Below, piece by piece: positions 5,104-46,698 of a DNA stretch of 64,000 nt (within the stretch, counting starts at the first letter, position 1; the number at the start of each line of letters is the position of its first letter). The position numbers and the translations under genes were made by a program. The notes beneath the pieces were generated by a model, which saw nothing but the letters and a program-made list of their open reading frames with translations, had not been told where the DNA came from and ran no database searches. This stretch comes from Caldisericota bacterium (GTDB lineage Bacteria; Caldisericota; JANLFM01), in contig JANLFM010000002.1 of assembly GCA_024655865.1 (NCBI GenBank), positions 74,405 to 138,404 on the forward strand, written 5' to 3'.

Positions 5104-6012
5104 TTACAGGAAAATCTTTCCCTCCATAGCGGGAATTACCTTCCCTCCCACCTTCACCTTGTAGGGATGGCCCATTCTATCTGCTTTTACCTCGACATAG
5201 ATCTTGCTGGGGCGCCCGATCTCCTCACCTTGTTCAATTTGAAATTCCATGGACTTAGGAAGGAGCCCCCTGAGTGCCAGATATGCTCCCAGGCCACCCG
5301 CGGCCGAACCGGTGGCCGGATCCTCCCTTACACCCTGGGCTGGAGAAAAGAAGCGCATGTGCACCAGTGCGTCTTTATCCTTTGTCTCCAGAGTGAACAC
5401 GCAGCAGCCGATCACCCCTAACTTCCTTTCCTGCTCCCTGAGCTCCAGGAATCTTGGCCTGAGTTCGCGAATCGTCCTCAGGTCAGGCAGTGGAACGAAA
5501 ACCTGGGGAATTCCCGTAGAAATAATGGCCACGTCCATCCCCGTGCTTCCGATTACTTCCTTTTCCAACCCCAGAGCGGAGGCTAACTCCTGAATATCCG
5601 TAAGGCAAGCTCCTAACTCAGTCTCTTTCTGGGTCATAACTACGCGCTCCACCTCTCCCTCTTTCAGGTAGATCTCCAGAGGAAGGACTCCCACTTTTAG
5701 CTCCTGATTAATAATGGTAACCGGCTCAGTGACGGGAAATCTTCCCAGCTCAGCCATTACATAGGCTGTCCCCAGGGATGGATGTCCCGCAAAGGGAATT
5801 TCGGCATTTGGGGTGAAAATGCGCACTTTGTAAGCGGCTTCTCTTGACTCGGGCGGAAAGACAAAAGTGGTCTCGGAAGTAGCCATTTCCTTGGCAATCA
5901 ATTGCATTTCCACATCTTCCAGACCCAGGGCATCAGGAATTACTACCAGAGGGTTTCCGCTGAAGTATTTATCGGTAAAGACGTTCACCCTGTGAAAAGA
6001 TACGGCCTTCAT
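5104..6012 (-). CDS. PhzF-family phenazine-biosynthesis-like isomerase
   Basis: VNVFTDKYFSGNPLVVI N-terminus and length ~300 aa typical of PhzF/YddE family. Confidence 0.75.
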   Translation of the reverse strand: MKAVSFHRVNVFTDKYFSGNPLVVIPDALGLEDVEMQLIAKEMATSETTFVFPPESREAAYKVRIFTPNAEIPFAGHPSLGTAYVMAELGRFPVTEPVTIINQELKVGVLPLEIYLKEGEVERVVMTQKETELGACLTDIQELASALGLEKEVIGSTGMDVAIISTGIPQVFVPLPDLRTIRELRPRFLELREQERKLGVIGCCVFTLETKDKDALVHMRFFSPAQGVREDPATGSAAGGLGAYLALRGLLPKSMEFQIEQGEEIGRPSKIYVEVKADRMGHPYKVKVGGKVIPAMEGKIFL

Positions 6013-6097
6013 GAAAATTCCCCCTTTCTTCTATTTTTAATCCCCTCAGAGCCTGCGCTCTGCCCCCTACTTTCTGATCACCCCCTCAAAGAGTTTT

Positions 6098-6910
6098 TTA
6101 AGAATTCGAGCCCAGCCCTTTTGCTGTGGAAATCCGACCGAACTTCTGCCAGCAGCTCAAAGTTCGTTTCAGATACTGATTCGCCCCTTTAAAATCTCCT
6201 TTTTTCTCGCACAGGCTGGCGAGCAACTGGCAGATTTCCCCAGTATCTCGCTCGCAGCCAGAATTCACTGCCAGATCAAGGCACTCCCTCAGGAGATCCT
6301 CCGCCTGCTTGAACTCCTCATCCTCAATGAGCATCAGAGCCCTACGAAACCTGGCCTTGCGCATAAGATCAGCCTGGGATGATTGTTCGGCCTCAAGAAA
6401 ACAGCTCCTGGCTTTCTTCCTGAAATTTAACCTCATTTCCCGATCCCAATGTGCGATTTCCTCATAAAATCGTCCCTGAAAATATTTCAGCCAGAGTCGA
6501 TCGCCATTCTCTAACTCAGGCATCTCCATGAGGTTGCTGATAGTGCCCAATCCATCTTTGAGGATGGTCGTGGTCTTTACTGGCTCAAGCTCGGCCAGAA
6601 GCAGGAGAACGGGGAAAATTGCCGTCTGGACCAGGAGGGTCTCGTGCATCAATCCTCTTTCAGATAGAAGGGAAATTCCCTCCTCCAGCATTCTCTTGGC
6701 CTGGTAAATTTTTTCTACAGAATCGTAGCTCAAAAGAATGGAAGAAAGTTCCCTTAAGGATTGGGCATATTTGCCCCAATCCTCCATCTTCTTAGCCTGG
6801 TTCAAGGATCGACGGTACAGGCTGAGGGCCCTTCTGCGGTGCATCCCGCCCTCTCTTAAATATCGACTCCATTCCTTGCGAGCGCTCTCCAAGACCTTGG
6901 TTAAATCCAA
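6098..6910 (-). CDS. Hypothetical helical (TPR-like) protein
   Basis: 270-aa ORF, no recognised motif. Confidence 0.4.
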   Translation of the reverse strand: MDLTKVLESARKEWSRYLREGGMHRRRALSLYRRSLNQAKKMEDWGKYAQSLRELSSILLSYDSVEKIYQAKRMLEEGISLLSERGLMHETLLVQTAIFPVLLLLAELEPVKTTTILKDGLGTISNLMEMPELENGDRLWLKYFQGRFYEEIAHWDREMRLNFRKKARSCFLEAEQSSQADLMRKARFRRALMLIEDEEFKQAEDLLRECLDLAVNSGCERDTGEICQLLASLCEKKGDFKGANQYLKRTLSCWQKFGRISTAKGLGSNS

Positions 6911-6948
6911 TTATTCAGCTTCTCCTTCCTCGACTTTTCCGGTTCCGA

Positions 6949-7476
6949 TTAATCTAAAAATGTGACAATCTCCTCAAGAGGGCGGCGGGGAGTAATCCTT
7001 CCTTGCTCTCCCGGGAAACCCACCGGAAGTATGGCAACAGGGCGGAGGTGTGAGGGCAGGGATAGGGCTTTTGCCGCCCGGGCCTCATCAAAGGCACCTA
7101 CCCAGCAAGAAGCAAGCCCCAGTTCCACGACCGTGAGCCAAATGTTCATGACCGCGCTCGCCGTGTCCTGAATGCTGTACAGGGTCCTCCCTCTTTCCCC
7201 GTAGCGGACGGCGGATCTTTCGGGATCGGCGCAAACCACAATCACCACTGGTGCCTGGGCCACAAATTCCTGGTCGAAAGCAGCTTCGGCTAAGGCCTGC
7301 TTCAATTCATAATTTCGCACCACATAAAAATGCCAGGGCTGGCGGTTTCCTGCTGAGGGTGCCCTCTGAGCAGCGGTGAAAATTTTCCTCAGGTGCTCTT
7401 CGGGAATGGGGTCACTTCTAAAAGACCTGATGCTGCGCCTTTCCAGGATAATCTCATAAGTTGATTTCCTTTCCAT
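6949..7476 (-). CDS. Nitroreductase-family protein
   Basis: ILERRSIRSF...PSAGNRQPWHFYVV motif pattern of NAD(P)H nitroreductases. Confidence 0.8.
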   Translation of the reverse strand: MERKSTYEIILERRSIRSFRSDPIPEEHLRKIFTAAQRAPSAGNRQPWHFYVVRNYELKQALAEAAFDQEFVAQAPVVIVVCADPERSAVRYGERGRTLYSIQDTASAVMNIWLTVVELGLASCWVGAFDEARAAKALSLPSHLRPVAILPVGFPGEQGRITPRRPLEEIVTFLD

Positions 7477-7484
7477 CCTAACAC

Positions 7485-8039
7485 CTATAGCCCTAACTCT
7501 TCCCGAATAGACTTCATGGCATCCAGGCCCAATCTCACAAAGCTTTCCAGGTCATAGCCAATCTCCGTGCAGGAGGCGATTTGCTCGCGATTGGCGCCGG
7601 CAGCGAAACGCTTCTCCTTGAAACGTTTTAATACGGAATCGGCAGTTAAAGTAGCGAGTTTGTCCGGTCTTACCAGGGCGGAAGCAATGATCAATCCTGT
7701 AAGCTGATCCACTGCTCTTAAAGCTTTCGCCATTAAGGTGCGCGCCTCTTCCCCGTTGTTTTCCCCGTTGTGCGCTCGCACAGCATGGGCCATCTCCGGG
7801 GTGAAGCCCAGACCTTCAAGAATCTCTGCCCCACGCAGAGCGTGCTCCTGGGGAGTAGTCTCCTCAGCGTCCAGGTCATGCAGTAATCCCACCAGCCCCC
7901 ATTGTTCTTCATTTTCTCCCTTTTCCCTGGCCACAGCCTTCATTACGGCTTCTGTTGCCAGCATATGTTTGATCAGGTTCTGGTTTTTGATGTGTTGCTC
8001 GAGTAGAGAAAGTGCTTGGTCGCGATTCACGAAGATCAC
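7485..8039 (-). CDS. HD-domain phosphohydrolase
   Basis: LLHDLD HD motif; ~180 aa HD-superfamily size. Confidence 0.6.
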   Translation of the reverse strand: MIFVNRDQALSLLEQHIKNQNLIKHMLATEAVMKAVAREKGENEEQWGLVGLLHDLDAEETTPQEHALRGAEILEGLGFTPEMAHAVRAHNGENNGEEARTLMAKALRAVDQLTGLIIASALVRPDKLATLTADSVLKRFKEKRFAAGANREQIASCTEIGYDLESFVRLGLDAMKSIREELGL

Positions 8040-37566: not shown

Positions 37567-38628
37567 ATGCCCATCCTGTTGCGAGGGCTTCTTGTTGCTC
37601 TCTCAACCCTATCTTTAGGGGGTCTTCTCTGGGTGGGGACGTTTTTTCTCCCCTACCCCGTTTACCTTGCCGCTTCCTACGCTCTCTTCGCCCTTCTTCT
37701 GCTTTTTTCCGCCCTTTTCAAAAGCAAAGAAAGAGGGTTCATAGAAAAGCTTTTCCTCTGGGAGGCCCTGCTCCTTTTCCTTTTAATCATGGCGATCCGC
37801 CTCCCATCCTACGCCTTGTCCGGGATCCTTTTAGAAAAATTGCCCGCAATCTTTATGGTCCTCCTTTGGGCTCTCTGGGTGAAGGGATGGAGGGTCTCTT
37901 CTCTGGGACTGACCTTTTGGAAATTCCCAGAGCAAGTCCTCGTAGGCCTGAGCTTCGCGCTGCTTTACTGGATTTTATACCAGGCTACTTTCGCCCTGTA
38001 CACCTGGGTCACCTCTGGTATTGCCACTTTCTATTTCTTTAATTATTCGCAGGATGTTCCCCGGGGAATTCCCCTCGATCCCGTCTCTTTTCTTATCGTC
38101 CTCTTCCTCTACTCAAATTTTGCCGAGGAACTCTTTTTTCGCGGTTTTCTCCTCAAGGAAGTTTACCGGGAAAAAAGGAAAGCACTCTTCTTTTTTCTCC
38201 TTCAGGCAGCGCTCTTCAGCCTGTATCACATCAACTACGCCCTCTTCCCTGGTGAAGGAAAAGGTCTGGACTGGGCCTACCTGGGATTTTATGTCGCCTG
38301 GACATTCTTATTCGGAATCGGTTTCGGCTTTGCGTACCTGATCTCCGGAAGCGTGATTTCCACGACTATCCTCCATGTCCTGGGAAATGTCATGCAGAGC
38401 AACTGGATCCTGCTTTTTTACCCTTTATCACAAAAAGGTTCCCCCTACCCCCAGGAGACTGCTCTGGCATTCAGGGAATCAATAGTCAGGCCCGCTTTAA
38501 TTTTGAATGCTTTCCTCTTCGCCCTCGTCCTGGGCATGATCTGGCTTTTGAGAAGGGGACGTGGAAGAATTGCTCCCGGAGTGAATGCTGCCCCTGGCCA
38601 GGGAAGCGAAGACCCCCACTATCGATAG
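37567..38628 (+). CDS. CPBP-family (CAAX/Abi) intramembrane metalloprotease
   Basis: EELFFRGF (motif 1), FSLYHINY (motif 2), ILHVLGNV (motif 3). Confidence 0.8.
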   Translation: MPILLRGLLVALSTLSLGGLLWVGTFFLPYPVYLAASYALFALLLLFSALFKSKERGFIEKLFLWEALLLFLLIMAIRLPSYALSGILLEKLPAIFMVLLWALWVKGWRVSSLGLTFWKFPEQVLVGLSFALLYWILYQATFALYTWVTSGIATFYFFNYSQDVPRGIPLDPVSFLIVLFLYSNFAEELFFRGFLLKEVYREKRKALFFFLLQAALFSLYHINYALFPGEGKGLDWAYLGFYVAWTFLFGIGFGFAYLISGSVISTTILHVLGNVMQSNWILLFYPLSQKGSPYPQETALAFRESIVRPALILNAFLFALVLGMIWLLRRGRGRIAPGVNAAPGQGSEDPHYR

Positions 38629-39956: not shown

Positions 39957-41165
39957 TCAAAAGTGGCTGAGGTTTTTCAACCCCAAAATAACCGATATCT
40001 CCTTCAGTTCCTCGGAAAGGTCACCAGGAGTAATGACCAGATGATTGGCCAGAGGAAGGTGTTTGATAAACTCAGCTTCCGGAAGCTTCAAGCTAATTTG
40101 CGTGCGGCAGAGGTTTTCCTTTCTTTGCCAGGGCAAAGTTTGAGCGGAGGAGAAAAAAATACCTTCCAGGGATGGGGCGATTTTACATAAGGTATAAGTG
40201 CCCTGAGTAATCACTCCTTCAAGAGCTACGCTTTTTCCGGATTCGAAATGAGGGGAAAGGGAGAAGTCACTCGTTAAGCCAGGAGCAACAGTACAATGGG
40301 CAAGCACGATCTGATCCCTGTCAATCCAGGCCAGGTTCGCCATGAACGAGGGCCTTCCGGAAAGGGCAGAAAGGAGGAGCAAGGTAAGGAGGGAGGGCAA
40401 ATCTCCTTCACAGGCAGCTGGAACCCCGGAGTTGTTCAAGTTGGCCAGAGCAAGGCAACCAGTTTGCCCGGTCTGGCCAAGAAGGTCGAAGCAGGAGAGC
40501 GCGATCCCGGAGTAGTTTTCCTTTTTCGCCAATTTCTCGATCACGGCGCTCAACCTGAGCACTTTAGGAAGACATCCTTTCTCAACGCCCTTCCAGGGAC
40601 GTGTCAAGTAAATCCCCATATCCTGAACGGGTTCGGATTCGTTCCAGGATTGAATCAACCATTCAAGGGCGACCCTTTCCACGGAAATATTCCATTTCTG
40701 GCGCAATTTCTCCTCATCCAGGTGGCTTCCCACAAGCCAGGAGGCAGGTTCTCCAATCAGGGCCAGGCGGGCCGAAAGGAATTTGCTCAGGGCTTCCCTT
40801 ACCTTTACCTTTAAGGGGATCAACTTTTTCAACTCCTCGATCGTTACAATCTGCACTCTCTTTTTGCTCGCTTCGAGATAAGTGCGGAGCTCCAGGGCTG
40901 CAGGAAGAGAATTCATGGCCGGGTGGACTAAAAGGATGTATTCTCGAGCCTCGATTGCGGCCCCCATTTTTTCCGTGCCTCCCGTGATAAGGAAAAGAAT
41001 TACAGGACTATCAAAAGAAAGCTTATCTTGAGGATCAACGAGCAGGGGGAAGAAATTTAAAAAATGAAGTTCCTCCCCAAGCTGAAATCGCACCCTGCTT
41101 ATAATTTCCGCTATGGTCCGCTCGTTGCCTAAAGGAGACGCTAAAGGGATTAAGGGGAACTTCAT
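39957..41165 (-). CDS. L-arabinose/L-fucose isomerase-fold family protein
   Basis: AACEGDLPSLLTLLLL...SFMANL...LAHCTVAPG resembles AraA EGDWKTAALLRIM...SFME...GSHMLEV region. 4-nt overlap with the upstream HD-GYP gene. Confidence 0.5.
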   Translation of the reverse strand: MKFPLIPLASPLGNERTIAEIISRVRFQLGEELHFLNFFPLLVDPQDKLSFDSPVILFLITGGTEKMGAAIEAREYILLVHPAMNSLPAALELRTYLEASKKRVQIVTIEELKKLIPLKVKVREALSKFLSARLALIGEPASWLVGSHLDEEKLRQKWNISVERVALEWLIQSWNESEPVQDMGIYLTRPWKGVEKGCLPKVLRLSAVIEKLAKKENYSGIALSCFDLLGQTGQTGCLALANLNNSGVPAACEGDLPSLLTLLLLSALSGRPSFMANLAWIDRDQIVLAHCTVAPGLTSDFSLSPHFESGKSVALEGVITQGTYTLCKIAPSLEGIFFSSAQTLPWQRKENLCRTQISLKLPEAEFIKHLPLANHLVITPGDLSEELKEISVILGLKNLSHF

Positions 41166-42709
41166 TTTTCCTCCTCAAAAGCAAAAAGCGAGAGGAAGAG
41201 CTCCACTACCCTGGGGTCGAACTGGGTGCCGGCGTTCTTCTTCAACTCGTAGACCGCCACCTCTCGGGGTAAGCTATCCCGATAAGGTCTTTTTTCTCTC
41301 ATCGCGGAATAGGCATCCACAACCGTTAAAATCCTCACAGGCACGGGAATTTCGTAATCTTTGAGTCCATCAGGATAACCCTTCCCGTCCCAGCGCTCGT
41401 GGTGCCAGCGAACAAATTTGGCGACATTTGCCAGGCCAGGGATGCTAGAGATAATGCGCTCTCCGATTATCGAGTGTTGCTTCATGATCTGCCATTCCTC
41501 GGGAGTAAGCCTGTCCGGCTTACGGAGCACGGAATCGGGAATACCAACTTTACCGATGTCGTGGAGCACGGCAGCGTATTGAAGGTCCTCCAGCTCCTCT
41601 GAGGAAAGTCCCATCAGGGAACCGATCTTCCGGGTGATCTCCTGCACGTCCTTGAGGTGGGTTCCTGTATAGCTGTCCTTAGCTTCCACCGCTAGAGAGA
41701 GGCTGGTAATCGTGCCGAGAAGGGTGTTCCTCAGCTCTTCTTGCTTTGCCAGTGCTTCTTCGCGGGAGAGAAAAGCTTGAAGGGCAATAGCTGCTAAATG
41801 TCCCGCTATGGTGAGGAAGGAGATGTCCTCCCTTGTTAGTTCCGTTTTTTTCTGGAAATTTAGGTCAAGGACTCCCAGAAGAATGCCCTGGTAGACTAAG
41901 GGGATTCCAAAGTACGTCTTTACAAGAGCTCTGGCGTTTTCGGGGAACTTAATAAATCTCGGGTCACTGTTCACATCCGGAATATACAGGGGCATACGTT
42001 CCAGAGCAGCGTGGCCCGCTCCTCCCTCGCCAATGCGGAAGTCCTTCTGTAACCCAAACCAGTTAGGTGGCCCCTTTGCCGCCCTGATTTTGAGCACGTC
42101 TCCCTCCAGTACCCGGAGGGCCACAAAGGCCTCGGGATACAGGTAGGAGAGAATTTTAAGAATGGCGGAGAGCGCTTCCTCTAGGGACGGGGAGGAAATA
42201 ATCTTTTCACTCAAGTTAAGCATTACATCGGGCAAACCGTTCCCGCTCTCCCCCGTTCTTGCGTTATGACAGAAGAGGAATTGGGAAAGAAGGGAGGACA
42301 GAGCTTTAAAGTTTCTCTTCTGGGCCGCAGTAAAATGGAGGTTGTTCCGAGAAAAGGCAATTATCACTCCCTGTGGCCTGTTCACGCGAATAGGAGCAGC
42401 ATAGGCATAGCTCCGGGGAAGGCCTGGAACCGCAAGGGCTTCGCGACTGGAAAAGATTTTTGTGGAATTCAGGGCCGTTTGCACGAATTTTTCCTGAATA
42501 AGGAAATCCATAGCCTCGGATTCCAGATTACCCATTGAACTGATGCCGTATTCCCACTTGCCACCCCCTTTGAGTAATATGACAACCGCTCTCGCATGAA
42601 GGAAGGGTTTGATAACGGCGCAGGCCCGGGAGAGGAATTTCTCGACATTTCCCTTTTCCAGAGCTCTTTTAAGAGAAGAAAAGATTTTAAGCTCGGGTTT
42701 TTCGCTCAC
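41162..42709 (-). CDS. HD-GYP c-di-GMP phosphodiesterase with N-terminal GAF sensor domains
   Basis: HD...HHERWDGKGYPDGL HD-GYP signature; N-terminal ~330 aa GAF-like. Confidence 0.8.
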   Translation of the reverse strand: MSEKPELKIFSSLKRALEKGNVEKFLSRACAVIKPFLHARAVVILLKGGGKWEYGISSMGNLESEAMDFLIQEKFVQTALNSTKIFSSREALAVPGLPRSYAYAAPIRVNRPQGVIIAFSRNNLHFTAAQKRNFKALSSLLSQFLFCHNARTGESGNGLPDVMLNLSEKIISSPSLEEALSAILKILSYLYPEAFVALRVLEGDVLKIRAAKGPPNWFGLQKDFRIGEGGAGHAALERMPLYIPDVNSDPRFIKFPENARALVKTYFGIPLVYQGILLGVLDLNFQKKTELTREDISFLTIAGHLAAIALQAFLSREEALAKQEELRNTLLGTITSLSLAVEAKDSYTGTHLKDVQEITRKIGSLMGLSSEELEDLQYAAVLHDIGKVGIPDSVLRKPDRLTPEEWQIMKQHSIIGERIISSIPGLANVAKFVRWHHERWDGKGYPDGLKDYEIPVPVRILTVVDAYSAMREKRPYRDSLPREVAVYELKKNAGTQFDPRVVELFLSLFAFEEEK

Positions 42710-42916: not shown

Positions 42917-44644
42917 ATGAGGAAACCACCGGGAGAGAAATTTTTATGGCCTAAAAGATTGAGGCCTGAAATCAGGCTTCATCCTTCTTTTATTGCTTTG
43001 TTCCTCCTTTTTTGGGTCGTGGCCCGAATCTATATCCCCATTATTTCCCCGAACTTCGAATCCAGAGAGGCCTGGCTACTTGCGTCTTTAATCACGCTTT
43101 TCTGTGCTATTTCTCTCGTTTTTCACCTTTATGCCCACAGAGGCATGGAGCGGCTTCTAAAGGTAAAGAATGGAACCCGGGCAGCTTTAGGTTTTCTGGG
43201 TGATCTCGCTCAGGAAAGGTCTTGGAGCACTTCAGCAGGAAAAGAGTTTTTAATCTCGGCAAGCGGTCCCATCCTCCACGGCATGCTCGCTTTAGTTTCT
43301 TACTTTTTATGGAACGCTCAGTTCGGCCCGGCATGGAACGCCGCGACCTCCTTCTTGATTATTTTTAACCTCTTCCTTGGGGCTCTGAACATGGCACCCT
43401 TTTACCCTTTCGATGGGGGGAGAATTTTCCTGGCCCTTCTTCCCCCAGTTTCCGAGAGGAAAATGTCCCTTTTAGGAAGGGGGGCATCCCTCGCTTTATT
43501 CGCGTGGGGTTTATTCCTCTTTTTCCAGGGAATCCAGTACGGCCGGGAATCCGGATCATTCACAATGCTCCTTGCCCTCTTGATCTTCTGGGAATCCCAG
43601 GGAACTTTTAATCTTCCTCCCGGCTGGAAAAGGGTATCAAGGTTTAAGTTCTTGAACGTGGCCCTTTCCCTTATCCTTGTCCCCCTGATGCTTCTTTCTT
43701 TTCTCTCCTTCCTTCCCCTTGCTTCCGGGATCGAGGCCCCAGGAACAGCGCTCCAGGTAGAGGGAATGATTAAATTGCCCTCTGAGTTTATTCATCCTCC
43801 TCAGGGCCATTTTCTTTTGACTTCGGTTTTTTCCCAGACCCCAATAATTTTCGCGGAGTGGCTCTATGCAAATTTCGATCCCGGCGTGGAGATCGTCCCT
43901 CCGGAGCGCGTGATTCCCCCGGTGGTCACTGCCGAAGAATGGATGAGGATGAATTACATGAACCTTGAGGAAAGTAAGGCCAACGCCATCTATGTGGCTC
44001 TGACCCTTGCCGGTTACCACCCGACCCTTGAAGGACAAGGGGCAAGGGTCGTTTCTATAAATGAGGAGAGCCCGGCGAAAGGGGTGCTTCAGAGAGGGGA
44101 CATCATCATCCAGGCAAACGGGATAAAAATTGAGCAGGCACAGGATTTAAAAGAAGTGATCAGTTCCTCAAACCCTCAGGAAAAAATTAAGCTCACGGTA
44201 AAAAGGAATAACGAAGTCCTCTTCCTGGAAACTTCCCTGATCAAGCCGGAAAAACCCGATGAGAAGCCTTATCTGGGTATTACCGTGGAAAGTGCAGAGA
44301 TGGTGCTTGAAACTCCTATTCCGGTTAAGATTGCCCCTCAAAAAATAGTGGGCGGCCCCTCCGCGGGATTGATGTTCTCCCTTTCCCTTTATAACCTCCT
44401 CATTCCCGCTGATCTCACAGGGGGGAGGCTAATCGCCGGGACCGGAACCATTGACCGAGAAGGAAAGGTAGGTCCCGTCGGAGGAGTAGAAATGAAAGTG
44501 AGGGCAGCAGAAAGAGCAGGAGCGGAGTACTTCCTCTCACCTGAGGAAAATTACCAGGATGCTCTGAAGGCTGCATCAAAAATTAAGGTAATCAAAGTAA
44601 AGACCATTCAGGAGGCCATCGTCTTCCTGAAATCCTCAAATTAG
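42917..44644 (+). CDS. Membrane PDZ-domain Lon-like (S16) protease with N-terminal M50/site-2-protease-like domain (HExxH replaced by HLYAH)
   Basis: GALNMAPFYPFDGGRIF (S2P NxxPxxxDGG motif), PDZ (GARVVSINEESPAKGVLQRGDIII), Lon C-terminal GGPSAGL catalytic Ser motif and downstream Lys. Confidence 0.65.
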   Translation: MRKPPGEKFLWPKRLRPEIRLHPSFIALFLLFWVVARIYIPIISPNFESREAWLLASLITLFCAISLVFHLYAHRGMERLLKVKNGTRAALGFLGDLAQERSWSTSAGKEFLISASGPILHGMLALVSYFLWNAQFGPAWNAATSFLIIFNLFLGALNMAPFYPFDGGRIFLALLPPVSERKMSLLGRGASLALFAWGLFLFFQGIQYGRESGSFTMLLALLIFWESQGTFNLPPGWKRVSRFKFLNVALSLILVPLMLLSFLSFLPLASGIEAPGTALQVEGMIKLPSEFIHPPQGHFLLTSVFSQTPIIFAEWLYANFDPGVEIVPPERVIPPVVTAEEWMRMNYMNLEESKANAIYVALTLAGYHPTLEGQGARVVSINEESPAKGVLQRGDIIIQANGIKIEQAQDLKEVISSSNPQEKIKLTVKRNNEVLFLETSLIKPEKPDEKPYLGITVESAEMVLETPIPVKIAPQKIVGGPSAGLMFSLSLYNLLIPADLTGGRLIAGTGTIDREGKVGPVGGVEMKVRAAERAGAEYFLSPEENYQDALKAASKIKVIKVKTIQEAIVFLKSSN

Positions 44645-44649
44645 GGTGG

Positions 44650-45516
44650 TCAGGAGGAGCTTTTCTTTTTCTCTGAGCGAGAATAGTCCACCGCGGCCCT
44701 GGCTAGTTTGACTGCGATACTCCCTCCAGGAACGATCATCCCTAAGGCATCCGCTCCCAGGTCGAAAAGCAGATCCTTCTTCAAGACGGCCTTAACTGCC
44801 TGTTTGAAGGTTCTACCACCGGTTCTCATTTCCCCAGTGAGGCCATCGAATTCCGCCACTCCCTGGCGCTCCTTGGGAATCCAGTGATATTCAAAAGCGT
44901 AAACCGGTCTGTAGTAAAGCTCGATCCTTGACAAGGTAATTTTCTCTTCATAAACTTTATCCGCCTGCAAGGGCTTCATCAGTTCCTGCAGCACCTGGCG
45001 TACTACGAAGGAAGCTCTGATTTCTGGCGGGATTACTACTCCCTGAAAGGGGTAATTTTCCAGATCCTCGATCTCCTCCAACCTGAACCTGAAAGCATAA
45101 GAATAATCACGCTTTTCTCCACTAATTCCATCAAAATAGGAAACCCCCTGATGCTCCTCCTTACATTGTTCAGTGCCGGGGACAATGATAACGCGACCCA
45201 GCTTCTTGTCCTCACAAGGCGTGAAGTTCAAATTAGCAATCGTGACGCTTTGAACCTCAGGACCGGAGATTTGTACCGGAAATTTGCGCAGGCGGTCATA
45301 AGCATAGCTCGTCCTAAATTCTATAAGCCAGAATGGCTCGTATCTTTTCTCTTCGTAGGTAATCTTGATATCCTCTCCCTTGGGGCGGCTGAGCAAGCTA
45401 GAAAGACCAGATGAGAAAACCCCTGCTTTCTTGTCCCAGGCGCGTTCCCTGGCCTGTTCCATGCTGAGAATCTCGGGAATTAGAAAAACTTTCTCTTCAG
45501 AAATAGTGATCTCCAT
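44650..45516 (-). CDS. Hypothetical protein, no recognisable domain
   Basis: 288-aa ORF with good RBS (GAGGGGA); monocistronic with 375-nt upstream noncoding region. Confidence 0.45.
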   Translation of the reverse strand: MEITISEEKVFLIPEILSMEQARERAWDKKAGVFSSGLSSLLSRPKGEDIKITYEEKRYEPFWLIEFRTSYAYDRLRKFPVQISGPEVQSVTIANLNFTPCEDKKLGRVIIVPGTEQCKEEHQGVSYFDGISGEKRDYSYAFRFRLEEIEDLENYPFQGVVIPPEIRASFVVRQVLQELMKPLQADKVYEEKITLSRIELYYRPVYAFEYHWIPKERQGVAEFDGLTGEMRTGGRTFKQAVKAVLKKDLLFDLGADALGMIVPGGSIAVKLARAAVDYSRSEKKKSSS

Positions 45517-45891: not shown

Positions 45892-46698
45892 ATGTCTCTT
45901 AGATACAGAGAAAACATCTTATGGGGAGTTTTTTTCTTAGTCATCGGTTTTTTTCTTCTTTTAGATAGATTGGGTGTTTTTGGAACAGTAGAATTTCCGC
46001 TTTCATCCATTATTTTTCTGGCCTTCACCCTTGCCTTTCTCGGCCTTTATTTTTTCAAGGAGCGCTCCTGGCCAATGCTTGTCCCCACTTTCGTGTTCTT
46101 AGGGCTAACCCTGCTCACTTTGAACGGATCCCGGGGATGGTTTCCGGGAGAGGTGGGTGCAGGGGCTCTGCTTATCTGCATCAGCATCCCCTTTCTGATC
46201 GCCTTTTTCCAGAAGACCTGGAACTGGGGGGTACTGATCCCGGGAGGAATCCTTTTCTTTGTGGGAGTTGCGGTAGCGCTCTCGGCCTATCTTCATTCTT
46301 CCTTCGTGCCCGCTATCATCCTCTGGGGGATAGGGATCTCTTTCTTCTTTGTTTTTCTGGCCAAAAATTCCAATTGGTGGGCGATAATTCCCGGAGGGAT
46401 TTTGTCGACTGTGGGGTTTCTTCCTCCTTTAACCGCCTTTTGGGGAGTAACTTCTGCAGGATGGGTGGGCGGTTTAGTGTGCGCTGGTTTTGCGGCCACA
46501 TTTGGTCTGGTTTACCTCGTAGACCCCAAATGGCAAACGCGCTGGGCCCTTTATCCCTTCGGCTTCCTGCTCTTTTTAGCCTTATGTTTCGTCTTCTTCG
46601 GAGAACTGGCCGCCAAATGGTGGCCCCTTCTTTTAATCGCCCTGGGCGTGTACCTTCTGGTTATCAATTTGCTGCGCTGGAGCAGGTCCAGAATTTAG
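45892..46698 (+). CDS. Polytopic membrane protein with internal (W)xIIPGGIL repeats, hypothetical
   Basis: 268 aa, ~8 TM, repeated GVLIPGGILFF / WAIIPGGILST segments. Confidence 0.45.
   Translation: MSLRYRENILWGVFFLVIGFFLLLDRLGVFGTVEFPLSSIIFLAFTLAFLGLYFFKERSWPMLVPTFVFLGLTLLTLNGSRGWFPGEVGAGALLICISIPFLIAFFQKTWNWGVLIPGGILFFVGVAVALSAYLHSSFVPAIILWGIGISFFFVFLAKNSNWWAIIPGGILSTVGFLPPLTAFWGVTSAGWVGGLVCAGFAATFGLVYLVDPKWQTRWALYPFGFLLFLALCFVFFGELAAKWWPLLLIALGVYLLVINLLRWSRSRI

Follow-up and report, generated by a model that had tools for sequence, protein, structure and literature searches.

A Glu-less M50 membrane domain fused to a YlbL/SepM-type Lon-like protease: a candidate bacterial site-2 pseudoprotease family

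The gene described here, from a window (the whole analysed stretch of DNA from a Caldisericota bacterium, 64,000 nucleotides long), joins an M50 membrane domain with a remodelled metal site to a protease of the YlbL/SepM type, both of them known kinds. In the alignments of its family, loss of the Glu of HExxH is strictly coupled to replacement of Gly by Asp or Glu in the edge-strand GG motif of the site-2 protease (S2P) fold, a coupling that we report as a new finding. To our overall reading, in which the Ser-Lys site is the working protease and the M50 module a non-hydrolytic intramembrane platform for binding clients, we give an even chance of being right. The family is a candidate bacterial S2P pseudoprotease; it forms a large, widespread and conserved lineage in which the catalytic Glu is missing.

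The ORF list has a single ORF with an ATG start and 575 aa at this locus, and the JGI contig Ga0417229_000185 carries the identical gene call; a promoter and terminator scan at the gene gave nothing above background. The features of the gene and its product are as follows.

42917..44644, + strand: whole gene, encoding the fusion protein with an M50-like six-TM domain, TM7 and the Lon-N, PDZ and Lon-C segments (ORF list, homologues and AF2 model)
42983..43594, + strand: M50/S2P-fold membrane domain, aa 23-226, with six TM helices; a beta-hairpin lying between TM2 and TM3 re-enters the membrane
43124..43138, + strand: H70-L-Y-A-H74, aa 70-74, at the HExxH position (aligned on HELGH)
43202..43204, + strand: Asp96, a clade-specific acid on the reentrant loop's edge strand, where the S2P GG has its second Gly
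43388..43420, + strand: second S2P motif, N158-MAP-FYPF-D166-GG, supplying the Asn clamp plus the third of the metal ligands
43595..43705, + strand: linker rich in Lys and Arg and predicted to be cytoplasmic, aa 227-243, and then TM7, aa 244-263 (AF2 helix, K+R counts)
43712..44011, + strand: first half of the Lon-S16 proteolytic fold, aa 266-365, upstream of the PDZ insertion
44012..44251, + strand: PDZ domain, aa 366-445, inserted within the Lon-like domain
44252..44632, + strand: second half of the Lon-S16 proteolytic domain, with the catalytic dyad Ser482 and Lys527
44351-44368, + strand: GGPSAG including Ser482, aa 479-484
44495-44497, + strand: Lys527 of the predicted dyad

This layout is borne out by domain searches, as the preliminary description had anticipated: Peptidase_M50 (PF02163; 32.9 bits against a gathering cutoff of 27.2), PDZ_2 (50.4 bits at aa 370-440) and Lon_C (PF05362; aa 480-566, 35.3 bits and above threshold) are all matched in Pfam, while the SepM model NF041438 of NCBIfam starts aligning at aa 254. 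The single-chain AF2 model of the 575-aa protein (pLDDT 91.8, pTM 0.87) has a helix at 244-263 and low pLDDT for the linker residues. The last 320 aa make up a full module of the YlbL/SepM type, comprising an anchor, a Lon-S16 fold interrupted by a PDZ domain and the Ser482-Lys527 pair, so that the description of this part as TM, PDZ and Lon-S16 with GGPSAG is confirmed by Pfam and NCBIfam with the dyad intact. TM7 is the counterpart of the single N-terminal anchor of YlbL/SepM and would take the chain outside. Counts of Lys and Arg, with a family mean of 3.2 in the linker versus 0.04-0.07 in the outer loops, are consistent, by the positive-inside rule, with an N-in, C-out topology. The Ser-Lys site would accordingly be extracellular, a location also proposed for YlbL, and the remodelled metal site would be directed to the membrane's cytoplasmic half. 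We read the protein as an envelope protease with seven TM helices.

The M50 assignment of the N-terminal domain, judged by profile comparison, is well above chance. A profile built from 20 sequences over aa 1-245 matched mjS2P (PDB 3B4R, E=3.4e-18) and SpoIVFB (8VJL, E=2.5e-13), placing the family's H-x-x-x-H, here HLYAH, on the HELGH of both proteins and the N158-P161-D166 motif on NLIPAFPMDGG of mjS2P. The 575-aa protein has the six TM helices and membrane-reentrant beta-hairpin of the S2P core, and residues ~1-230 form a complete group-III S2P (M50) fold like those of mjS2P and SpoIVFB. The M50/S2P domain proposed earlier is thus genuine over ~230 aa, and HLYAH does stand in the place of HExxH with the Glu missing; the second motif is also present, but in the canonical spacing NxxPxxxxDG rather than NxxPxxxDGG, which was off by one residue. 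A scan of the whole sequence found no HExxH or HxxEH at any other place, so an intact motif elsewhere in the protein, which would have told against a degenerate site, is absent. Such a motif occurs in one of 121 family sequences, at a non-conserved position.

Calling the motif degenerate captures the loss of Glu and misses that the change is not random. Both H70 and H74 are kept in all 115 ungapped family sequences, while position 71, Leu here, is Glu in 0/115 aligned sequences and takes L, A, V, I, S, T, G, H, N, R, F and other residues, i.e. it is unconstrained. In the family alignment D166, P161 and P164 are conserved at 100%, N151 at 99% and N158 at 98%; the Asn clamp and Pro kink are the equivalents of RseP N389/N394, from which their role is taken (PMC9401612). 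An alignment of the 120 closest homologues has H70, H74, D166, S482 and K527 invariant. The three predicted metal ligands, i.e. the His pair of TM2 and the Asp of NxxPxxxxDG, would thereby all be retained. A few distant members have lost one His (L001 with HVAAQ, P0154 with QVVAH, P0173 with HTIAP); GGPSAG is kept in L001 and P0173, and P0154 aligns through the Lon domain without a match to the pattern. Glu110 was considered as a substitute base and ruled out, being equally conserved in canonical HExxH proteins.

The edge-strand GG motif of S2Ps, which lies before the metal site, reads G95-D96 in this protein. Position 96 is Asp or Glu in 116/116 family sequences and in 42/42 Glu-less representatives, versus Gly in 96/99 canonical HExxH relatives, although, being the product of one evolutionary event, this correlation has an n of 1. 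Its counterparts are G68 of EcRseP, G62 of AaRseP and G68 of SpoIVFB (PMC9401612, PMC11864173, PMC11486902), the last lying two residues past F66 (reentrant-loop apex); in AaRseP the main chain of Gly-62 pairs with the P1' residue of the substrate, beside the zinc-bound P1 carbonyl (PMC11864173). Beyond the edge strand, canonical sequences have E at position 101 in 40/99 cases and at position 103 in 65/99, and the family has Trp, Pro or Ala where these acidic residues stand, with Trp101 a gain; their mutation reduces SpoIVFB activity (PMC9401612). No covariation was seen in the family alignment between side-chain size at 71 and Asp versus Glu at 96, which lends no support to direct packing of the two. 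The coupled switch makes inactivity of the M50 module, as the preliminary description held, plausible rather than established.

The same architecture occurs in at least 155 homologue clusters (90% identity) with 94-100% of the length covered; the added S2P module, called unusual in the preliminary description, is thus no isolated oddity. Members with taxon labels are Chloroflexota (Anaerolineae, Ardenticatenaceae and Chloroflexia), at ~40% identity to the 575-aa protein. A genome scan using Lon-motif patterns, in which the matches listed were mostly single-TM YlbL/SepM genes, included among those listed at least four full-length Chloroflexota loci. Mean pairwise identity is 44% in the M50 domain, 44.5% in PDZ and 28% in the linker plus TM7; conservation of the M50 domain at the level of PDZ implies that it is functional and not decaying, and the family as a whole is under purifying selection. 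The nearest HExxH relatives of the M50 domain are M50+CBS proteins, and candidates for stand-alone Glu-less M50 proteins were rejected, the short matches being truncated or frameshifted fusions. Current database names, such as 'PDZ domain-containing protein', 'S16 family serine protease' and 'Lon-like protease', conceal the M50 domain and its changed active site, and in the literature searched we found no description of an M50-YlbL-type fusion.

Across the five gene contexts examined there is no conserved neighbourhood beyond the closest lineage: synteny is confined to a relative of 64% identity and involves HD-GYP/GAF, ORFs without Pfam matches, a 268-aa membrane ORF and an ABC transporter, whereas the more distant members among the five lie in unrelated contexts. 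Neither these contexts nor other evidence ties the protein to regulated intramembrane proteolysis, of which it had been suggested to be a derivative. In one locus (L086) an ECF sigma/anti-sigma pair lies ~2.6 kb downstream of the gene and is not conserved.

As for function, we posit that the TM segment of a single-pass client would dock on the reentrant loop of the M50 domain via beta-strand addition, and that the ectodomain of the docked client would be kept close enough to the tethered PDZ/Lon-like protease to be cut by it. The M50 module itself has most likely lost the ability to hydrolyse peptide bonds, and Asp96 probably engages the metal site, e.g. as a fourth ligand, which would turn a catalytic site into a structural one. 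Precedents for the two halves of this scheme exist: SpoIVFB E44Q (PMC11486902) and AaRseP E18Q (PMC11864173) hold substrate stably on the reentrant sheet, and soluble YlbL without its TM is inactive, its authors having proposed TM-mediated recognition of YneA (PMC6051672). Against the docking scheme, gene context is conserved only in the closest lineage, and the retention of all ligands and both Asn along with a new invariant carboxylate, precisely where P1' pairs, is a pattern that might also be expected if the catalytic base had moved.

Before other roles for the M50 domain are weighed, the fusion could be thought to have arisen from assembly error or frameshift joining an M50 and a ylbL-like gene, or to be a decaying gene, given its metagenomic source and the several database relatives that are visibly frameshifted or truncated. 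This has next to no chance of being correct and is effectively refuted: the uninterrupted fusion, about 575-610 aa long, recurs with the same architecture in >100 independent sequences, drawn from assemblies of JGI, ENA, NCBI and Logan, and in genome MAGs, one of them on a 10.4-Mb contig; the AF2 model is confident over the junction at the pTM given above; and all domains are strongly conserved. A more substantial alternative, which we nonetheless consider unlikely, makes the M50-like domain a mere anchor or a platform for oligomerisation that binds no clients, perhaps with a metal in a structural role, and leaves substrate choice entirely to PDZ and Lon. Structural zinc typically has four protein ligands (His, His, Asp, Asp), and the set predicted here would suit such a role, as would the absence of one His from some members; moreover, a single TM helix suffices for the YlbL/SepM proteins of Bacillota and Actinomycetota, which match just aa ~250-573. 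However, the conservation at 98-100% of the reentrant edge strand and of N151, N158, P161 and P164, whose S2P equivalents clamp and unwind substrate, goes beyond the needs of a plain anchor, and TM7, the true equivalent of the anchor, is the least conserved part of the protein.

A further alternative, likewise improbable, is that the M50 domain is still an active intramembrane metalloprotease whose base has been relocated from the HExxH helix to Asp/Glu96, on the edge strand that faces the metal. Such a 'with-no-Glu' site-2 protease, performing non-canonical cleavage in the membrane with the carboxylate moved to the P1'-pairing position, is a reading to which we give the same low probability. 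It draws on the perfect two-state switch at position 96, on the equivalence of that position to the P1'-pairing Gly-62 of AaRseP (PMC11864173) and to SpoIVFB G68, on the interchange of Asp and Glu there, which points to selection on the carboxylate itself, and on the conservation of the metal ligands, two conserved Asn and PxxP kink at 98-100%. Weighing against it are the single evolutionary origin of the switch, the loss of the acids of the hydrophilic compartment at 101 and 103 with the gain of the bulky Trp101, the lack of constraint at position 71 beside the presumed water site, the independence of size at 71 from Asp versus Glu at 96 and the His ligand missing in occasional members; furthermore, the effect of a side chain in place of the P1'-pairing Gly may instead be to block strand addition, or to ligate the metal. 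Were the relocated base real, this would be the first single polypeptide to unite an extracytoplasmic site-1 protease (Ser-Lys) with an intramembrane site-2 protease (Zn).

Either outcome would be informative on S2P mechanism, the family being a bacterial counterpart of iRhom/EGY3-type pseudoproteases in the one case and an instance of catalytic-residue migration in the other. For the recognition of membrane-anchored substrates, the authors of the YlbL study suggested the TM segment. Under our preferred reading of the M50 module as a docking platform, the family may show how proteases of this type capture membrane-spanning substrates, and the fusion of an entire substrate-docking S2P fold to a YlbL-type protease offers a natural test system for TM recognition.

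Finally, the two halves of the protein find parallels in known systems. In its layout, an anchor and a PDZ-split Lon-S16 domain, the C-terminal half resembles Bacillus subtilis YlbL (DdcP), Streptococcus mutans SepM and the actinomycetotal Lon-like PDZ proteases. The alignment of residues 254-572 spans the SepM family model NF041438 from end to end (positions 9-339 of 340), at 170.1 bits and below its 200-bit equivalog cutoff; the spacing of 45 residues between S234 and K279 of YlbL equals that between S482 and K527; and among the matches listed, Bacillota and Actinomycetota members have 30-40% identity to the C-terminal module. In contrast to the one TM anchor of YlbL/SepM, a six-TM S2P fold here precedes the anchor TM7, and the ylbL-coaD-rsmD neighbourhood of Bacillota (PMC6411480) is absent. 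Neither Pfam nor NCBIfam gave a match in the protein to the AAA+ module of LonA/LonB, and the TIGR lon models match just the last ~90 residues with scores far under their cutoffs.

On the membrane side, the group III S2Ps (MEROPS M50B; mjS2P 3B4R and SpoIVFB 8VJL) have the same His/His/Asp positions, NxxPxxxxDG and Asn clamp, from which the present domain departs in the absent Glu, the change of GG to G-D/E and that of the acidic cluster to W-P-A. Canonical M50+CBS relatives bear a cytoplasmic CBS pair, in the stead of which there are here TM7 and a protease predicted to be extracytoplasmic. Among group I S2Ps (RseP, RasP, MucP), RseP has a PDZ tandem between the core TMs that serves an active HExxH site as a size filter, whereas here the PDZ follows TM7 inside an appended serine protease and the metallo-site lacks Glu; TIGR00054 (RseP type) scores 30 bits against a cutoff of 147.6. 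The plant S2P homologue EGY3 and, in the rhomboid family, the iRhoms and the derlins are conserved without catalytic residues and act through binding of membrane clients (PMC9355673, PMC3149277). EGY3, which has M50 membership in common with the present family, is reported in plants only and is unfused to another protease, whereas here every metal ligand is kept and a carboxylate has been gained. Chemically analogous are the trap mutants SpoIVFB E44Q (8VJM) and AaRseP E18Q (9J83), whose ligands are intact in a site without Glu and which retain substrate stably through beta-sheet augmentation; the GG edge strand is unaltered in them, as is the acidic cluster, whereas the natural family has remodelled both.

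The fusion gene encodes a Glu-less M50/S2P domain joined through a seventh TM helix (TM7) to a YlbL/SepM-type PDZ/Lon-S16 protease, and the ORF list of the window and the Pfam and motif searches place its parts as follows:

42917-44644, + strand: fusion ORF, ATG start, 575 aa, uninterrupted
Peptidase_M50 (Pfam): 32.9 bits against a cutoff of 27.2
aa 70-74: HLYAH
aa 158-168: NMAPFYPFDGG, canonical NxxPxxxxDG
aa 370-440: PDZ_2/PDZ_6/PDZ (Pfam)
aa 479-484: GGPSAG
aa 480-566: Lon_C (Pfam)

An identical gene call is present on the JGI metagenome contig 3300038743|Ga0417229_000185. The region aa 254-572 aligns end-to-end with the NCBIfam SepM-family S16 model at 170 bits, under its 200-bit equivalog cutoff. 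The domain make-up thus agrees with the preliminary description of an S2P-like domain with HLYAH for HExxH, followed by PDZ and Lon domains with GGPSAG; the second S2P motif is also present, in the form NxxPxxxxDG, one residue off the spacing originally given.

A profile built on aa 1-245 in 20 diverse members of the family matches the M. jannaschii S2P (3B4R, E=3.4e-18) and SpoIVFB (8VJL/8VJM, E=2.5e-13), and in these alignments the family's S-L-x-x-H-x-x-x-H falls onto SVVLHELGH and its N-L-x-P-x-F-P-x-D-G-G onto NLIPAFPMDGG. An AlphaFold2 model built from 87 family sequences (pLDDT 91.8, pTM 0.87) has six TM helices in the N-terminal part, TM2 and TM3 being separated by a beta-hairpin, and after TM6 a low-confidence basic linker leads to TM7 (aa 244-263) and the Lon/PDZ module. 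Together, profile and model identify the N-terminal region as a true S2P. A motif scan found neither HExxH nor HxxEH elsewhere in the protein, so that, with M50 kinship apparent from the profile matches, the earlier reading of a degenerate S2P stands.

This M50-YlbL fusion is a family and not a one-off: at least 155 homologue clusters were found (120 of these listed), nearly all of 575-610 aa with M50, PDZ and Lon_C, and the more than 100 independent full-length homologues exclude a fusion artefact. Where a source is named, it is an Anaerolineae or Anaerolineales MAG; among the matches listed, full-length genome matches come from Ardenticatenaceae, Chloroflexia, Oscillochloris and Anaerolineales, and Bacillota and Actinomycetota genomes align over aa ~250-573 only, as ordinary single-TM YlbL/SepM proteins. 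In the family alignment H70, H74, P161, P164, D166, S482 and K527 are invariant, Q99, W132, N151 and N158 are each >90% conserved, and Glu never occurs at position 71. Mean pairwise identity is 44% for the M50 domain, 44.5% for the PDZ, 55% and 66% for the N- and C-terminal halves of Lon, and 28% for the linker plus TM7; purifying selection thus acts on the M50 domain. One Chloroflexia orthologue (MAG MFD02416.bin.2.180, L002 6001-7458), in which the N-terminal ~100 residues appear out of frame, the HxxxH region is absent and AIAAQAW stands where GDAAQVW is expected, is probably a pseudogene or the product of an assembly indel.

Comparison of 42 Glu-less with 99 HExxH representatives points to a coupled active-site switch, which is a new finding. 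The second Gly of the 'GG' following the HExxH helix is Gly in 96/99 canonical proteins, whereas every one of the Glu-less representatives has an acidic residue there (Asp in 39, Glu in 3); across 116 aligned family sequences this position, residue 96, holds Asp 97 times and Glu 19 times. Canonical proteins have downstream acidic residues, with Glu at position 101 in 40/99 and at position 103 in 65/99, where the family instead has Trp101 (108/116), Pro102 and Ala103. Glu110 was rejected as a replacement base, being common to canonical proteins too. In EcRseP the corresponding segment, P65-L-G-G-Y-V-K71, is the 'edge strand', which borders the hydrophilic compartment of the active site and forms hydrogen bonds with a zinc-bound inhibitor (PMC9401612). 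In substrate-bound AaRseP(E18Q), Gly-62 pairs with the P1' main chain, and since Y63 corresponds to EcY69, it is the second Gly of LGGY (PMC11864173). By sequence equivalence to these published structures, Asp96 is predicted to sit in the middle of what was once the active site.

With aa 1-250 as query, phmmer run exhaustively gave 1103 matches at E up to 1e-3. All those better than ~1e-13 are Glu-less, and the complete ones extend through the Lon domain, with the Lon Ser motif in nearly all; short Glu-less matches were rejected as stand-alone proteins, being fusion copies that are truncated or frameshifted. The weaker matches carry HExxH and are about 365-400 aa long; M50+CBS, the make-up of most of six sampled, is group III, of the SpoIVFB/mjS2P type. 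With these as nearest HExxH relatives, the Glu-less clade has swapped a cytoplasmic CBS pair for TM7 and a probably extracytoplasmic YlbL-type module. Three M50 relatives of about 330-400 aa (P0209, P0215 and P0221) have HDLAH, with Asp for the Glu of HExxH, and P0209 and P0221 at least retain the GG motif; in them the S2P catalytic motif varies naturally in a separate way. P0157 (385 aa), an M50+CBS protein with canonical HELAH, has a strong C-terminal Pfam match to ribosomal_L24 (78 bits, aa 314-385), for which fused gene calls or an unusual domain arrangement may account.

Six-TM group III S2Ps have an N-in/C-in topology. Combined with the distribution of Lys+Arg, which averages 3.05 at the N-terminus and 3.18 in the TM6-TM7 linker across the family and 0.04-0.07 in loops 44-48 and 134-137, this topology implies that TM7 takes the PDZ/Lon module outside, making it probably extracytoplasmic, with the remodelled metal site likely in the cytoplasmic half of the membrane. 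YlbL too is thought to act extracellularly (PMC6051672).

The fusion gene appears monocistronic, and promoter and terminator scans gave background level. Its neighbours are:

37567-38628, + strand: Rce1-like CPBP (type II CAAX) intramembrane protease gene, about 4 kb upstream of the fusion
39957-41165, - strand: 402-aa ORF, no Pfam match, 4-bp overlap with the next gene
41162-42709, - strand: GAF-GAF-HD-GYP (HD_5) gene, divergent from the fusion gene
44650-45516, - strand: convergent 288-aa ORF, no Pfam match, ending 5 bp from the fusion-gene stop
45892-46698, + strand: 268-aa polytopic membrane ORF, no Pfam match

These neighbours are conserved in the nearest lineage only: the GAF-GAF-HD-GYP gene and the 402-aa ORF are syntenic in two homologous loci (L082 and L083), not in more distant relatives, and both loci conserve an ORF of identical length to the 268-aa one. 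In L082, the contig of the 64%-identical relative, the CPBP gene again accompanies the fusion gene, so that this lineage encodes intramembrane proteases of two unrelated folds near each other. In one distant relative (contig of P0027; L086, 9357-10873), genes for an ECF sigma factor and a zf-HC2 anti-sigma factor lie about 2.6 kb downstream of the fusion with an ABC transporter between; the arrangement is not conserved elsewhere and so hints only weakly at a connection with anti-sigma processing.

Of the catalytic parts, the Ser482-Lys527 dyad is the certain one; in vivo, YlbL needs S234 and K279, the equivalents of these two residues (PMC6051672). For the M50 module we favour, with about even confidence, a non-hydrolytic role in which a client TM segment would dock on the reentrant strand and Asn clamp, thereby presenting its ectodomain to the tethered PDZ/Lon protease. 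This is favoured because the Glu was lost together with the acidic cluster, position 71 is unconstrained, E-to-Q trap mutants keep substrate stably bound, and YlbL shows no activity in a soluble form that has no TM, its authors having proposed TM-mediated recognition (PMC6051672). It is also favoured because one His is sporadically missing in a few distant members: L001 (Ardenticatenaceae MAG, 6001-7704) has HVAAQ, P0154 QVVAH and P0173 HTIAP. All three keep Asp96, NxxPxxxxDG and the Lon domain (P0154 is unmatched by the GGPSAG pattern), which suggests that some lineages can dispense with the metal site.

The main rival, which we consider doubtful, takes Asp/Glu96 for a general base that has migrated, the module still being an S2P; the perfect switch at position 96, its location where P1' pairs and the invariance of the metal ligands speak for this, but the switch arose once in evolution, and the size of residue 71 shows no co-variation with Asp versus Glu at 96. 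That the module is a plain anchor is unlikely, fitting poorly with the 98-100% conservation of the substrate-clamping residues.

The M50-PDZ-Lon architecture is already in databases, unnamed, its members carrying only 'PDZ domain-containing protein', 'Lon-like protease' or 'S16 family serine protease'. In the searchable literature we found no description of the M50-YlbL fusion or of a Glu-less bacterial S2P clade, and a survey of PDZ proteins gives PDZ+Lon for Actinobacteria and Firmicutes only (PMC6411480). Known analogues of the Glu-less M50 module are found in the plant S2P pseudoprotease EGY3 and in the iRhoms.
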